Source of the DNA: a virus
Lineage: Duplodnaviria; Heunggongvirae; Uroviricota; Caudoviricetes
DNA length: 25,804 nt
Virus record (IMG/VR): IMGVR_UViG_2897352509_000001
Direction: 5' to 3' (one strand)
The notes beneath the pieces were generated by a model, which was given only the letters and a program-made list of their open reading frames with translations, was not told the origin of the DNA and ran no database searches. A program made the position numbers and the translations under genes. Below are positions 11,848-24,778 of this stretch, piece after piece; positions within the stretch are counted from its first letter, which is position 1; each line of letters starts with the position of its first letter.

Positions 11848-11893
11848 ATTCGTAATGCGAAGGTCGTAGGTTCGACTCCTATTATCGGCACCA
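11848..11893 (+). other. tRNA-Thr(CGT) 3' fragment (thrW-like), left attachment repeat of the P4-like satellite
   Basis: ATTCGTAATGCGAAGGTCGTAGGTTCGACTCCTATTATCGGCACCA matches the 3' 46 nt of thrW as recalled; the 5' 30 nt of the tRNA are absent. Confidence 0.75.
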
Positions 11894-12055
11894 TCTCAAC
11901 TTCCTCAAACGTCCGTATTAGTCCATAAAATCTCTGATTTATAACATTTTTTATTCTTTTAAGTCCATAGTAGTCCGTAACCATCCAGTAGAATCCGGTA
12001 CTGAATGTGTATAGGATTGTGTATATGTTCCTGTTCGGTCTGGATTCCTATACAC

Positions 12056-13237
12056 ATGCCTTTAAACGATATGCAGATTCGCCGCGCTAAGCCTGAAGCT
12101 AAAGCCTATACATTTGGAGATGGGCTAGGGTTGTCATTACTTATAGAACCTAATGGAAGCAAGAGTTGGCGGTTCCGCTATCGCTATGCCGGCAAACCCA
12201 AAATGATCTCGCTTGGTGTTTACCCAACGATCACCCTTGCCGATGCTCGTTCCCGTCGTGATGAAGCTCGAAAACTTGTGGCAGAAGGAAAGAACCCTAG
12301 TGAGGTTCGAAAAGAGCAAAAGCTAGCTATGCAAACAGAGTCAGAGAACGCCTTCGAAAAGATAGCCAGAGAGTGGCATCAACTTAAATCTGCTAAATGG
12401 TCGGCGGGATATGCATCAGACATCATGGAAGCGTTTAAGAACGACATTTTTCCTTATGTCGGAACAAGGCCTGTGGGAGAGATTAAACCGCTAGAGCTGC
12501 TGAACGTTCTGCGTAAAATTGAGAAACGTGGTGCGTTGGAGAAAATGCGCAAAGTGCGGCAGCGTTGCTCCGAAGTGAACCGCCCCGCAATTGCAACGGG
12601 TAGGGCGGAGTACAATCCTGCGGCTGATCTCTCCAGCGCTCTCGAAGTACACCAATCCAATCATTTCCCATTCCTAAAAGCTGATGAGATACCTGATTTT
12701 CTACGTGCCTTAGAGGGTTACTCCGGGAGTAAGCTTGTCCAGATAGCCACGAAATTACTGATGATTACGGGTGTGAGAACCATCGAATTACGCGCGGCAT
12801 TATGGCAAGAATTTGATCTGGATAACGCTATTTGGGAAATTCCTGCTGAAAGGATGAAAATGCGTAGGCCACATCTTGTGCCCTTATCATCTCAAGCGGT
12901 AGATTTACTCAATGAACTCAAGATCATGACAGGGAACTATCGTTATGTTTTTCCAGGGCGGAACGATCCGAATAGGCCAATGAGCGAAGCGAGTATAAAT
13001 CAAGCCATTAAGCGTATTGGGTATGGAGGAAAAGTCACTGGACATGGTTTTCGTCATACCCTTTCTACAATCCTGCATGAGCAAGGTTTTGAGAGTGCTT
13101 GGATTGAAATCCAGTTGGCTCATGTAGATAAAAATTCTATTAGGGGGACTTATAACCATGCTCAATATTTTAGTGGAAGGAAGTCTATGATGGACTGGTA
13201 CAGTAATTTGATATTTGAAAGACTAAAAAGGAGTTAA
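12056..13237 (+). CDS. int: P4-type tyrosine integrase
   Basis: From ATG 12056: MPLNDMQIRRAKPEAKAYTFGDGLGLSLLIEPNGSKSWRFRYRYAGKPKMISLGVYP..., the typical P4-family integrase N-terminus, with C-terminal catalytic residues (...HGFRHT...LAHVDKN...RGTYNH). The listed ORF 12005..13237 is an upstream extension. Confidence 0.9.
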   Translation: MPLNDMQIRRAKPEAKAYTFGDGLGLSLLIEPNGSKSWRFRYRYAGKPKMISLGVYPTITLADARSRRDEARKLVAEGKNPSEVRKEQKLAMQTESENAFEKIAREWHQLKSAKWSAGYASDIMEAFKNDIFPYVGTRPVGEIKPLELLNVLRKIEKRGALEKMRKVRQRCSEVNRPAIATGRAEYNPAADLSSALEVHQSNHFPFLKADEIPDFLRALEGYSGSKLVQIATKLLMITGVRTIELRAALWQEFDLDNAIWEIPAERMKMRRPHLVPLSSQAVDLLNELKIMTGNYRYVFPGRNDPNRPMSEASINQAIKRIGYGGKVTGHGFRHTLSTILHEQGFESAWIEIQLAHVDKNSIRGTYNHAQYFSGRKSMMDWYSNLIFERLKRS

Positions 13238-13240
13238 TTT

Positions 13241-13657
13241 GTGTCTCAACCACTTTCGGAAATATTGACATGGGATGATGAACAATGGGAGGTATTTGTC
13301 CATGATTGGCTTATTGTCTGTAAATCAGATGATTACCCGTGGAGCGAACGTTTGGGAGGAGCTGGAGATAAAGGTAGAGACGTTGTTGGATATAAATCGG
13401 ATCCTAACGTAGAAGGTTATTCTTGGGATAATTATCAATGCAAACTGTACAAAAAAAGTTTAGGGTTCTCTGATGTTGTAGTTGAGTTTGGAAAACTTAT
13501 CTATTTTACTCTGAATGGTGATTATCCCATCCCTCAGAAGTACTTTTTTGTGGCACCCTATGATTTATCTACTACATTTTCTAATTTATTGAAAAATAAA
13601 AACGAGCTTAAAAAAGCAGTCCTTGATTCATGGGATTCAGCAATTTCAAAAAAATAA
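13241..13657 (+). CDS. Cargo gene A, 5' part: Mrr-like PD-(D/E)xK restriction-endonuclease-fold domain
   Basis: GTG start 8 nt after AGGAG. Motif WEVFVHDWL...GGAGDKGRDVVGY...YQCKLYKK fits the Mrr catalytic core pattern (G-x-G-D-x-G-x-D ... Q-x-K). The frame ends inside an A7 tract. Confidence 0.6.
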   Translation: MSQPLSEILTWDDEQWEVFVHDWLIVCKSDDYPWSERLGGAGDKGRDVVGYKSDPNVEGYSWDNYQCKLYKKSLGFSDVVVEFGKLIYFTLNGDYPIPQKYFFVAPYDLSTTFSNLLKNKNELKKAVLDSWDSAISKK

Positions 13658-14247
13658 CTAAAAAGATTGATATTCCATTAGATGATGAAATAAAAAAATA
13701 TATTGAGGATTTTGATTTTAGTATTTTTTACTCTCTACCCTTATCATTGATTTTAAATGATATTGCAAATACACACCTTTATTTTAAGTACTTTAACGAG
13801 CTGTATGTCGTGAGAATCCCTCCAAATGAAATTCCAACATACAATTCAAAAAAAGAGTCTGTATATGTTAATGCACTGCTTCAAGCCTATTCAGAGCATG
13901 GAAATAAAACTTATAGTTCTTTCTTAGAGCTTGATGATCCATACAGACGACACTTTAATAATAGTAGAAATGATTTTTATTTTGCATCTTCGCTTGAGGT
14001 TTTTGTCCGCGAAGTATTTAAAGATGATGTATTCAAAGCATTGAAATGTTACATTTCATCTTCAATTGAACCCGTCTTTTATGAAGACCATAATTATGCA
14101 TTTATTAGGTGTAATGCAGTCTTGAAGCAGGCTGTTCTGACACCAATTGCACATTCAGTACTATCAAAAATATGTGAAGCAAATGATAAAAAAGGAATAT
14201 GCCATCATTTGGTTAATGATGGTGAAGTAATTTGGACGGTGAGATAA
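13630..14247 (+). CDS. Cargo gene A, 3' part (uncharacterised domain); probably the continuation of 13241..13657 across an A7 tract
   Basis: 205-aa AT-rich ORF. One extra A in the A7 run at about 13649-13655 would fuse it in frame to the upstream Mrr-like ORF, giving a ~335-aa protein. Confidence 0.55.
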   Translation: MGFSNFKKITKKIDIPLDDEIKKYIEDFDFSIFYSLPLSLILNDIANTHLYFKYFNELYVVRIPPNEIPTYNSKKESVYVNALLQAYSEHGNKTYSSFLELDDPYRRHFNNSRNDFYFASSLEVFVREVFKDDVFKALKCYISSSIEPVFYEDHNYAFIRCNAVLKQAVLTPIAHSVLSKICEANDKKGICHHLVNDGEVIWTVR

Positions 14248-23140: not shown

Positions 23141-23147
23141 CTGACCT

Positions 23148-23168
23148 AAGACCGGCTGTGCCGGTCTT
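23148..23168. terminator. Strong hairpin between the convergent primase and 23273..24229 genes (AAGACCGGctgtgCCGGTCTT)
   Basis: 8-bp perfect stem, 8 nt after the primase stop. It lacks a clear U-run on either strand, so it may be a bidirectional terminator or an RNA-stability element. Confidence 0.45.
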
Positions 23169-23272
23169 AAATCCGCTACAGGAAATTATCTCAAAATATA
23201 TATCGATAAAATTTAAAAGTTATATGCTAAGGCGTCAGCGGAAAATGCATCTAATTCATTGTTAGATGATGT

Positions 23273-24229
23273 TTATTTTTGAATTGATTTAAACATCCCA
23301 TCGAGTTGTAATTTATTTATGTCGGTTTTCTTTATGGCTTTAATTAAGTTTTCAATAACTTCCAAAGAAAAAATTACATCTTTCTTTTCAATTCTAACCC
23401 CCCCGTGGTGGCTGCAAGCATTAAGGATGTCCTTTGTAATTTCAACATCATTTTTCATTAATGGTTCATAGTCCAGAGCCTCAATAACAGAAACTAAACT
23501 ACCTAGCATTTGCTCTTGGTATTGAACGTTGTTTAAATGCATTATACGAATATTAACAAGCATGAGAATATATTCTAAATATCTCCTGGCAGTATTTCCT
23601 TTCTCTTGTAAAGAATCACGATCATATTCCTCAATACTCATGACTTCATTATGTAAAGAGGCTATTTTGTGCTCTGCTAATGAAATATTTATCGCATCCA
23701 TGAGGTTTCGTGAGAAGCCTGTAGATGTAACATGACCATTTGCGGGCCTTGTTAAAATACATGTAGTATAGCAATTTATATTTGGGGTCTGGATTGTCTC
23801 ATTTACTCTTTTAACCGTTCTATAAACGTCTACCATATAAGAACCTGAGTTTTCAAATGAACATGAAGAGCATTTTGTATTATATATTCTATTTAGAGAT
23901 AACTGATTGTGATAGTATCCCTTTAAGAAAGCATATATAGTGTCATTAAACTCGACAAACACAACGGACTCAATATATATATGGAATTTATCATTGGGGT
24001 GCCACTCTAATTCAAGTCTTCTTGTAGAGTCATCAAAGGAAAAGTTTGAAATAAAATCCCAGTTACCTAAATCTATAAAATCAACGATATTTCTACCTGC
24101 ACCATGGATATTTTTATTTATTAAAGTTGTGATTGAGTTTTTTATAATGTCCCAATCATGAATTTCATGATCGAATTTATTATTGATGGTTTCTTTTATT
24201 TGATTGGAAAAGTTTGAATAACTAGTCAC
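23273..24229 (-). CDS. AT-rich hypothetical protein (318 aa) between the primase and the right attachment repeat; candidate second cargo gene
   Basis: Long clean ORF with low GC like the int-side cargo. I recognise no motif in it. Confidence 0.6.
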   Translation of the reverse strand: MTSYSNFSNQIKETINNKFDHEIHDWDIIKNSITTLINKNIHGAGRNIVDFIDLGNWDFISNFSFDDSTRRLELEWHPNDKFHIYIESVVFVEFNDTIYAFLKGYYHNQLSLNRIYNTKCSSCSFENSGSYMVDVYRTVKRVNETIQTPNINCYTTCILTRPANGHVTSTGFSRNLMDAINISLAEHKIASLHNEVMSIEEYDRDSLQEKGNTARRYLEYILMLVNIRIMHLNNVQYQEQMLGSLVSVIEALDYEPLMKNDVEITKDILNACSHHGGVRIEKKDVIFSLEVIENLIKAIKKTDINKLQLDGMFKSIQK

Positions 24230-24758
24230 TTGTTAGCCTCAAAATTAATAATGAGTATTAAAATTTAATTGATATTGTCTATAAAATGTAGCGATGCAAT
24301 TTTATTGCAACGAAATGATTTTTACAACATACCATTATCGCTAAACAAAATCGCACCCATCAAATCAACTTACGTTACAATCACTACAAAGCGATTGCAT
24401 TTAAATTCAAAACAGTTTTCTGTTGGGCGCATTTTTTGTTGTACTGGACTAAAGAGAAAAAATGGGGTAAGGAACAAATACCTTCCGTGCTCAAAAATTA
24501 GGTTTTTATGCACTTATTAATCAGTCAAGGTGAACAGTAAAGTGTTCACTTCTTATCAATCGTTAATTTCATATCTTTTTGAATATTAATGAAAAAAAAC
24601 ACAATGAGTAGTATGAACAGTTATCCCCCAAAAAAAGTTTTTTCTGCCTTGAGAATGCGCGGAAAGCGAACGCCTTCACCAATGTGTATAGGGGTGTGTG
24701 TAGTTTAAATCTTCTATTTTAATTTATGTATTAAAATCATTGTGTTGGTGGCGATTAT

Positions 24759-24778
24759 TGGTTCCTATTATCGCACCA
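24759..24778 (+). repeat. Right attachment repeat of the P4-like satellite (degenerate copy of the tRNA-Thr 3' end)
   Basis: tggttcctattatcgcacca versus ggttcgactcctattatcggcacca at 11869-11893; the shared core is cctattatcg(g)cacca. Confidence 0.65.

Follow-up and report, generated by a model that had tools for sequence, protein, structure and literature searches.

A probable Sp2/CP-933I-type satellite prophage of the P4 family behind a 46-nt fragment of thrW in Escherichia coli

The IMG/VR virus record IMGVR_UViG_2897352509_000001 (25,804 nt; the whole stretch was analyzed and is called the window) carries a P4-like integrase gene beside the 3′ fragment of a tRNA-Thr gene rather than beside a whole tRNA. 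The locus raises the question of how the integrase came to abut an incomplete tRNA and whether the element behind it, at positions 11848–24778, is still a working satellite. Our analysis identifies this element, with a probability of about 0.92, as a P4-family phage satellite prophage of 12.9 kb, namely the Sp2/CP-933I element of the Escherichia coli O55:H7/O157:H7 lineage. The element is already known both individually, as Sp2/CP-933I, and as a kind, as a P4-like satellite with a psu/delta-swapped backbone. The significance of the finding is low: annotation of the element dates back to the first O157:H7 genomes, and its family, gene-order variant, cargo hotspots, and antisense immunity have all been published. 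New details are a Lamassu cargo with at least four lesions, an orphan gene with a HEPN-fold domain in the primase–att hotspot, and the loop of an antisense RNA that has changed together with both of its targets relative to O157.

The window aligned with the proA–thrW region of strain O157:H7 EC4115 with 99.0% identity and was colinear with it across all 25.8 kb. The locus of EC4115 consists of intact thrW, an 11.9-kb degraded lambdoid prophage, a 46-nt tRNA fragment, a P4-like element, a short repeat, and a LysR-family gene; intact thrW ends there 14 nt upstream of the position equivalent to the first base of the window. Loci of the Sp2 type had 99.0–99.2% identity with the window over the full length, with common flanks. 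They share with it the locus, the Sp1-type remnant upstream, the LysR gene downstream, and an identical gene set including the split Lamassu genes, and differ from it in tight divergent patches. We take CP-933H and CP-933I to be the names, in this pairing, of the Sp1-type and Sp2-type elements in strain EDL933. In the prophage list of O157 Sakai, Sp2 is a “P4-like” prophage and Sp1 a degraded lambdoid remnant (Asadulghani et al., PMC2669165).

The 46-nt stretch at the left end of the element spans the region from the anticodon loop to the CCA of thrW (tRNA-Thr) and matches thrW of O157:H7 EC4115 exactly, and no complete tRNA was found within the window by ARAGORN. The left repeat CCTATTATCGGCACCA, which a sequence-only reading had placed at 11878–11893, lies at these coordinates and is the end of this longer stretch. 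The right repeat proposed for 24763–24778 is also real; however, the 15-mer cctattatcgcacca actually occupies 24764–24778, and a 16-mer is obtained only with the preceding T. This right 16-mer equals 11877–11893 minus one G. The shared 11-mer TCCTATTATCG was present in exactly two copies in the 25.8-kb window, with none expected from 100 shuffles.

Three synthetic junctions were searched against 5,426 complete E. coli genomes and counted where at least 80% of a junction was covered in one place. The empty site (intact thrW followed by the sequence from 24779), on the existence of which the sequence-only reading had made its repeats depend, was present in 948 genomes. The 30 best matches were single uninterrupted pieces with 98.9–99.7% identity; E. 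coli C, where the site was read directly, and BLR(DE3) are examples. The satellite alone (intact thrW joined to the int side) was found in 120 genomes, including O55:H7 DEC5A (99.8%) and the O157 strains 493/89, 2571, and F6321 (100%). A right arm of the upstream type, followed by the 46-nt fragment and the chromosomal flank, was found in 339 genomes (best matches of about 94–96%), and the tandem arrangement in about 305 (full-element query; best match of 99.2%). Since all four states of the site were found, both repeats are genuine attachment (att) sites and the two elements are independent of each other. The claim that the satellite is bounded by direct repeats derived from tRNA-Thr is confirmed by the identity with thrW and by the reconstructable empty site. 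The second position of the element in a tandem array, also suggested earlier, is borne out by the intact thrW upstream in O157:H7 and by genomes with either element alone. The locus is thus of modest worth as an example of four occupancy states of one tRNA integration site within one species.

A satellite inserted at thrW of E. coli VR50 (locus L056) has a common insertion site with the window element, an integrase 88% identical to it, and the same G-less attR core (TTCCTATTATCGCACCAT). The sharing of this core by an independent satellite indicates that the missing G is native to attP of the integrase family and is not a result of decay. Because the attP-derived right copy is without one G, while the tRNA-side copy keeps both, the crossover was probably located to the right of the missing G, in the last bases CACCAT. 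GTGTATA motifs at 12007, 12019, and 24684, with an inverted copy at 12049, may represent arm-type sites. The features of the window are listed in Table 1.

Table 1. Features of the window with their positions, strands, and supporting matches.
Feature	Positions	Strand	Remarks
Sp1/CP-933H-type degraded lambdoid prophage	1–11847		outside the satellite; first position in the thrW array; 99% identity and colinear with EC4115 302.6–314.2 kb, and annotation
thrW 3′ 46 nt	11848–11893	+	identical to thrW positions 31–76; attR of the upstream prophage and attL of the satellite; shared core 11877–11893
int, P4-type tyrosine integrase	12005–13237	+	Pfam Arm-DNA-bind_3, Phage_int_M, Phage_integrase; start of RefSeq homologue equivalent to 12056
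cargo region	13241–16516	+	lmuA, lmuC, lmuB
lmuA effector with C-terminal CTD6, pseudogene	13241–14247	+	split into 138-aa and 205-aa open reading frames
lmuC, ABC-3C middle component 2, intact	14232–14705	+	Pfam MC2 6e-30; PADLOC LmuC 2.5e-36
lmuB, SMC-like ABC ATPase, pseudogene in three open reading frames	14671–16516	+	cover 3–199, 230–329, and 428–608 of one 610-position LmuB profile
cos-like packaging region	16690–16760	−	minus-strand reading TGCATGAAAACC...AAGCGAAGCGAGCAGGCGTGGGGGGCTGCGCGCGC; border of variable cargo and conserved backbone
ogr/delta late-gene activator	16926–17198	−	Pfam Ogr_Delta 1e-16; 41% identical to P4 Delta over 44 aa
psu, Rho antagonist and capsid decoration	17204–17755	−	Pfam Psu 4.8e-42; phrog_6366 1.4e-76; 31% identical to P4 Psu
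sid, capsid size determination	17752–18504	−	phrog_6165 5.3e-96; 23% identical to P4 Sid over 243 aa, E 7e-11
putative ori	18673–18886	+	eight T[AG]TTCA iterons in three groups, 10–11 bp phasing, one orientation; between sid and alpA
alpA/vis, regulator and excision helper	19438–19698	+	Pfam Phage_AlpA 1.2e-19; 63% identical to P4 ORF88 (Vis)
small open reading frames	19695–20793		between alpA and alpha
leader with first antisense target pair (c4-a1b1) and isrK-type RNA	19757–19847	+	RF03163 48.5 bits; RF01394 75 bits
C4/CI-type antisense immunity RNA	19916–20003	+	RF01695 59.6 bits (gathering 45)
Icd-like small open reading frame, 64 aa	20058–20252	+	in-frame 3′ part of the 185-aa “Ash” frame 19695–20252
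73-aa protein without known function	20249–20470	+	phrog_10110 3e-42
cnr (DUF5375, copy-number control)	20470–20793	+	Pfam DUF5375 1.7e-49; 71% identical to P4 ORF106
alpha primase-helicase	20750–23140	+	Zn-ribbon, Toprim, D5_N, Pox_D5; start of RefSeq homologue equivalent to 20807
318-aa orphan gene with C-terminal HEPN-fold domain	23273–24229	−	primase–att accessory hotspot; 31–36% G+C
crr-like region with iterons	24530–24620		inverted pair GGTGAACA...TGTTCAC 24530–24549; more copies at 24580 and 24614
attR core TCCTATTATCG-CACCA	24763–24778	+	followed by chromosomal flank TTTAAATCAAGTAG..., which runs on from thrW in empty-site genomes

The genes named by the sequence-only reading (int, cargo, ogr, psu, sid, alpA, small open reading frames (ORFs), and alpha) were all found with Pfam, PHROGs, and PADLOC. 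The 318-aa ORF and the crr-like region between alpha and the right repeat, as well as the pseudogene state of the cargo genes, had not been mentioned in it. All seven published core markers of P4-like elements (PMC8628076) were present in the element; psu, delta, and sid were adjacent, all on the minus strand, in the swapped-order variant. Proteins were compared with those of the P4 record NC_001609. Alpha was 73% identical to P4 alpha over 771 aa, and the integrase was 38% identical to P4 Int, with the catalytic R...HxxR...Y kept. The Ogr/Delta protein of 90 aa contained a single zinc-finger domain, while P4 Delta (166 aa) contains two. The late gene order sid–psu–ogr, as opposed to sid–delta–psu of P4, agreed with the P4 record. 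This difference is real, yet it is a known variant, since the psu/delta swap has been catalogued in 20% of P4-like elements (Moura de Sousa and Rocha, PMC8628076).

The module order of P4 was retained: int, hotspot, cos, late operon, ori, vis, CI-RNA region, cnr, alpha, crr, and att. Both elements are integrated at the 3′ end of a tRNA gene, P4 at leuX and the window element at thrW. In contrast to P4, the window element has neither epsilon nor ORF151, and the 73-aa gene occupies that interval; a Lamassu remnant is located where P4 has gop/beta/cII, and an additional HEPN-fold gene is present 3′ of alpha. A 75-aa gene between “epsilon” and alpha, absent from P4, was reported for 61% of P4-like elements, and cnr for 90% (PMC8628076); ORFs 20249–20470 and 20470–20793 of the window match these two families. 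The “epsilon” marker of the same study is equated with Ash. The 185-aa “Ash” ORF of the window matched Pfam Phage_ASH (3.9e-30) and was 66% identical to the 137-aa “cI/ash” ORF of P4, not to P4 epsilon. Marker-based satellite catalogues in which the Ash ORF is called “epsilon” do not detect the P4 epsilon protein.

Satellites of the same backbone subtype (ogr–psu–sid, alpA, Icd-like, 75-aa gene, DUF5375, and alpha) were found at leuX of E. coli O103 RM8385 and O166:H15 JNE21-009 (loci L005 and L006). They share the cos variant of the window and are about 90% identical to it in the DNA near cos, but differ in their own integrase and site (leuX) and in the hotspot cargo (SIR2 plus ATPase, IS66, and others). 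The RM8385 satellite has an AbiJ-type gene 3′ of alpha, where the window has the 318-aa ORF. The VR50 satellite differs from the window element in the classical P4 backbone and gene order, with ORFs sized like P4 epsilon and ORF151 at the corresponding positions, in a full two-copy crr, and in the absence of a gene between alpha and attR. Its cargo, an ATP-dependent nuclease and a UvrD-type helicase, was read as a Gabija-like candidate.

The iterons of the region between sid and alpA are located at 18673, 18683, 18747, 18758, 18768, 18860, 18870, and 18880. They resemble the type-1 repeats of P4 (TGTTCACC), which are located in the same sid–vis interval, and this region would act as the origin of replication (ori). 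The crr-like region corresponds in position to crr of P4 and shares homology with a portion of the iteron-rich crr in the VR50 satellite; it may be regarded as a putative crr.

The cos-like region aligned with cos of P4 and of four Peduoviridae, namely Fels-2, E. coli phage 500465-1, and one Klebsiella and one Yersinia P2-like phage, with the invariant blocks TGCATGAAAACC, AAGCG, GGCG.GG, and CGCGC and an inner part offset by about 5 nt. Conservation of the backbone in about 540 other E. coli genomes begins exactly at this site, with variable cargo on the other side, and the variant cos motif adjoins ogr–psu–sid in these genomes and in about 35 IMG/VR loci. A BLAST search with the 211-bp cos-proximal region gave no match among 50,697 phage records, and a 63-nt cos consensus used at a lax threshold did recover cos regions of Peduoviridae. 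Two scans of viral contigs for a helper with the variant cos core found none: loci with the cos context all carried satellite genes, and the rest were chance matches in DNA of high G+C content.

An antisense RNA immunity module was found between alpA and cnr. Three Rfam families scored above gathering, all on the plus strand and inside the long Ash ORF. The c4-a1b1 targets lie at 19757–19809 and the isrK-type RNA at 19770–19847, the latter ending in a terminator (19826–19847) with a terminator-like hairpin and a T-run. In the Rfam consensus structure of the C4 RNA, neither the loop UUUCCAAUGUUG nor the single strand ACGCCAA is paired; the structure was taken from the Rfam alignment, as the minimum free energy fold of the isolated RNA failed to give the consensus hairpin of the family. 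The loop (19959–19968) is complementary to 19810–19818 and 20039–20047, and the single strand (19975–19981) to 19795–19801 and 20008–20014. These complementarities are 7–9 nt long at both target sites. The ribosome-binding site GGAGG (20045–20049) of the Icd-like ORF overlaps the second loop target. The module thus belongs to the type of the C4 RNA of P1/P7 and the CI RNA of P4 (RF01695, RF03163), in which an unpaired loop and a single strand match two target pairs, one upstream and one over the icd-like ribosome-binding site. The Phage_ASH ORF, “Icd-like” in RefSeq, is largely DNA encoding the isrK and C4 RNAs; its true coding sequence is probably confined to the final 64 codons, beginning with the ATG at 20058.

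The largest divergence of the window from O157 falls in this module, with 79 differences in 19703–20144 that change the loop and both targets together. The loop of the window CCAATGTTG faces the targets CAACATTGG and AACATTGG, and the loop of O157 CCAATAAG faces CTTATTGG twice; in an alternative notation of the same change, the window loop is TCCAATGTTG with CAACATTGG and AACATTGGA, and the O157 loop is TCCAATAAG with CTTATTGG twice. No complete E. coli genome exceeded 93.6% identity over this patch. The specificity-determining loop of the window is unlike that of O157 Sp2, which suggests that the window module has a different immunity specificity (heteroimmunity). The locus provides a clean three-way compensatory change within an antisense immunity module.

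The int–cos hotspot of 3.3 kb, with a G+C content of 28–34%, contained a three-gene Lamassu/ABC-3C system in the order effector, middle component, and SMC-like ATPase, matched in PADLOC by LmuA, LmuC, and LmuB, respectively. The system is of the DdmABC-like three-gene type. It has been inactivated by at least four lesions and is a remnant rather than a working member of its family. The N-terminal part of LmuA is probably an Mrr-type nuclease. The two lmuA ORFs cover positions 10–140 and 141–333 of one 336-position PADLOC LmuA profile and are separated by a 1-nt deletion in an A7 run at 13648–13654. A −1 reading gives a protein of 335 aa that aligns without gaps with a 335-aa homologue from Xenorhabdus (68% identity); full-length homologues have 334–337 aa. 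The ancestral lmuA therefore had one more A. The frameshift context TC A AAA AAA TAA is a formal A_AAA_AAA −1 slippery heptamer directly 5′ of a stop codon, and the A-run may be a slippage switch instead of a plain mutation; a plain A8-to-A7 deletion is most likely. The split state of lmuA is common to O55:H7, O157:H7, and the IMG/VR locus L016.

A three-frame reading of lmuB revealed an in-frame stop codon at 15328–15330, a frameshift near 15700, and a frameshift at about 15880–15950. The lesions overlapped among relatives. O55:H7 DEC5A has the lmuA split and the distal lmuB frameshift, plus a stop codon in lmuC, and L016 has the lmuA split and the distal lmuB frameshift with no other lesion; the N-terminal part of lmuB (394/403 aa) is unbroken in both the O55:H7 copy and L016. 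Such overlapping sets of lesions point to a stepwise decay of the Lamassu system. We failed to find an intact or diverged copy of this cargo in E. coli: it was present in only 308 genomes, all at least 99% identical and of the same lineage. According to a 2026 survey, less than 1% of P4 pseudogenes are defence-related (PMC13586616); the decayed Lamassu is therefore a minority case and a rare example of a defence system rotting in place within a P4 hotspot. The hotspot system of O157:H7 FRIK944, reported as inactive (Rousset et al.), was considered as a candidate for the same cargo and rejected; it is a cytidine-deaminase system in another P4-like element with a canonical cos.

As to the history of the locus, the P4-type tyrosine integrase would have inserted the satellite at the 3′ terminus of thrW. 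On the most parsimonious reading, the lambdoid phage that survives as the Sp1/CP-933H remnant would afterwards have entered the rebuilt thrW via the 46-nt core and pushed the old 46-nt tRNA end, together with the satellite, 11.9 kb away. This displacement would explain why int abuts a tRNA fragment. O55:H7 is the ancestral lineage of O157 and carries the satellite alone, which suggests that of the two elements the satellite was the first to arrive. By homology with P4, the C4/CI antisense RNA would pair with its two leader targets, one of them over the ribosome-binding site of the Icd-like ORF, and keep the replication operon off. With an active P2-family helper, Ogr/Delta would turn on the late genes, Sid would build small capsids, and Psu would block Rho. 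Alpha would replicate the element from the iteron-containing ori/crr, Int and AlpA would excise it, and the helper terminase would cut the cos-like site. The element is probably dormant in the lineage that now hosts it.

Several observations weigh against this identification and the history proposed with it. No complete genome among those searched was identical to the window, which differs from O157 in tight patches. BLASTP of all ORFs of the element (E ≤ 0.01) revealed no homologue of the 95-aa epsilon helper-derepression protein of P4. The 19-mer of P2/P4 cos was absent from the window, with no occurrence within three mismatches. The minus-strand motif GCGAGCAGGCGTGGGGGGC (16700–16712) contains a G-to-A change within the most conserved part of the cos-like motif: A is present in the window and the O157-type loci L019 and L052, and G (GCGGGCA) in the same-cargo IMG/VR relatives L007 and L016 and in all other members of the subfamily. 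Outward PCR and quantitative PCR in O157 Sakai, with and without mitomycin C, detected no circular, replicating, or packaged Sp2 (PMC2669165). Finally, the insertion order is drawn from the distribution of the elements; the reverse order is conceivable, since genomes with the upstream-type element alone exist, and the distribution would look no different had O55:H7 and some O157 strains precisely lost that element. The earlier description of the element as complete therefore holds for its core genes, which are intact, and is limited by the decayed cargo, the lack of a P4 epsilon homologue, the cos core unlike that of P2/P4, and the lack of circles in Sakai.

These points bear mainly on whether the element still moves. 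It may be a fossil, that is, a P4-derived island no longer able to excise, replicate, or be packaged, and kept by vertical descent; we consider this a serious possibility, somewhat short of even chances. The lack of Sp2 circles, replication, and packaging in Sakai speaks for it, but the Sakai tests had no competent helper: the resident P2-like prophage Sp13 is without morphogenesis genes (PMC2669165). The cargo lesions common to O55:H7 and O157:H7, together with lineage-specific ones, fit a long vertical residence, and the confinement of the Lamassu cargo to one lineage points in the same direction; int, delta, psu, sid, alpA, cnr, and alpha, on the other hand, are all full-length with complete domain coverage. 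The G-to-A change in the cos motif and the missing epsilon also favor a fossil, whereas the iterons and att cores have been preserved, the lack of the G in attR is a native trait of the integrase family, and the antisense RNA keeps perfect complementarity with both targets after the change of the module. Taken together, the evidence is divided: simple decay is opposed by the intact core ORFs and by the co-variation within the immunity module, whereas a long dormancy is favored by the rotted cargo and by a distribution that is strictly vertical.

It is unlikely, although conceivable, that the satellite has become domesticated and is no longer a mobile parasite, having been passed down vertically from the O55:H7 ancestor onward. 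The reasoning here is that the Lamassu cargo has decayed and no circles were detected in Sakai, yet the core is intact and the three pairing partners are in register. Intact genes for hijacking, replication, and immunity and an in-register antisense exchange would fit selection on the satellite core. If so, the core may serve the host, for example, as an interference system against P2-family phages.

The satellite may also have arrived second, by integration into the distal 46-nt copy behind a resident lambdoid phage, which we hold to be improbable. A substrate for such an event exists in nature, as 339 genomes carry the upstream-type right end followed by the 46-nt fragment and the flank, and the 46-nt copy holds the whole 17-nt core used by the satellite. 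However, O55:H7 DEC5A, O157 493/89, and other O157 strains have the satellite at intact thrW (junction identity of 99.8–100%) with no upstream prophage, and the ancestral position of O55:H7 relative to O157 speaks against it as well. It is very improbable that the whole 24.8 kb (1–24778) is one composite island moving as a unit: thrW and the right-hand core do bracket both elements, and long IMG/VR contigs span the satellite with neighboring prophage DNA, but each half is found without the other in hundreds of genomes, the integrase of the upstream element is truncated, and neither Sp1 nor Sp2 circularizes in Sakai (PMC2669165). Deletion of the 5′ half of thrW by a later rearrangement, which the sequence-only reading had offered as an alternative in keeping with the absence of a complete tRNA inside the window, can practically be dismissed, because the window begins just after the intact thrW of the syntenic O157 locus and the conserved right arm of the upstream element precedes the 46-nt fragment both here and in 339 other genomes.

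Besides the satellite backbone and its Lamassu cargo, the orphan gene after alpha deserves attention. The C-terminal domain of its 318-aa product has the four-helix HEPN fold. The canonical catalytic motif of HEPN proteins, R-x(4-6)-H, was not seen in the protein sequence, whose invariant residues make up NxCSHHGG and RRY. Profile searches of Pfam, PADLOC, and PHROGs gave no family match for this ORF. Of its 36 homologues, all those with a source name were from an enterobacterium or Aeromonas. The primase–att interval is a minor defence hotspot of P4, with 7% of the systems (PMC13586616). We regard the gene as a candidate for a role in defence or toxicity, which is no more than a reasonable guess.

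A deletion derivative of the element was found in the IMG/VR record UViG_2923272612_000005 (locus L007, 700–7786). There, the cos site lies almost immediately beside the cnr/alpha region, and the genes ogr, psu, sid, and alpA have been lost along with the immunity region. The decay of the Lamassu genes is further advanced, and the identity of the 318-aa gene falls to 78%.

The upstream lambdoid remnant contained a truncated int (1–789, minus strand), an IS3-family element, cI/cro/cII, tail-fibre genes with a Pin invertase, and an AraC gene. The LexA-family cI-like repressor (3187–3900, minus strand), cro, and cII have been kept in this Sp1-type remnant. Mitomycin C induces early genes of Sp1, though the Sp1 prophage neither amplifies nor excises (PMC2669165). 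The Rfam ALIL pseudoknot at 2253–2369 on the minus strand (121.5 bits) is the programmed-frameshift signal of the IS3-family element, with orfA at 2324–2650 and orfB at 1437–2327.

The 248 differences between the window and EC4115 were located almost entirely in tight patches (648–690, 6108–6148, 7014–7373, 8130–8759, 11559–11647, and 19703–20144), with near-identical sequence between them. The patches at 7014–8759 fall within or close to the genes for the tail fibre and the Pin invertase, and the patch at 19703–20144 is the immunity module. Small inversions were rejected as their source, since the patches are not reverse complements; rather than artefacts, they resemble natural variable segments.

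The chromosomal flank of the thrW integration site is itself variable. In O157 and O55, the chromosome 3′ of the right att site contains a full LysR gene, followed by genes for an SDR oxidoreductase, a second LysR, a hydrolase, and an MFS transporter before paoD. In E. coli C, BLR(DE3), and VR50, only a LysR fragment is present, adjoining paoD (L001 27303–33646 versus L003 2027–2365).

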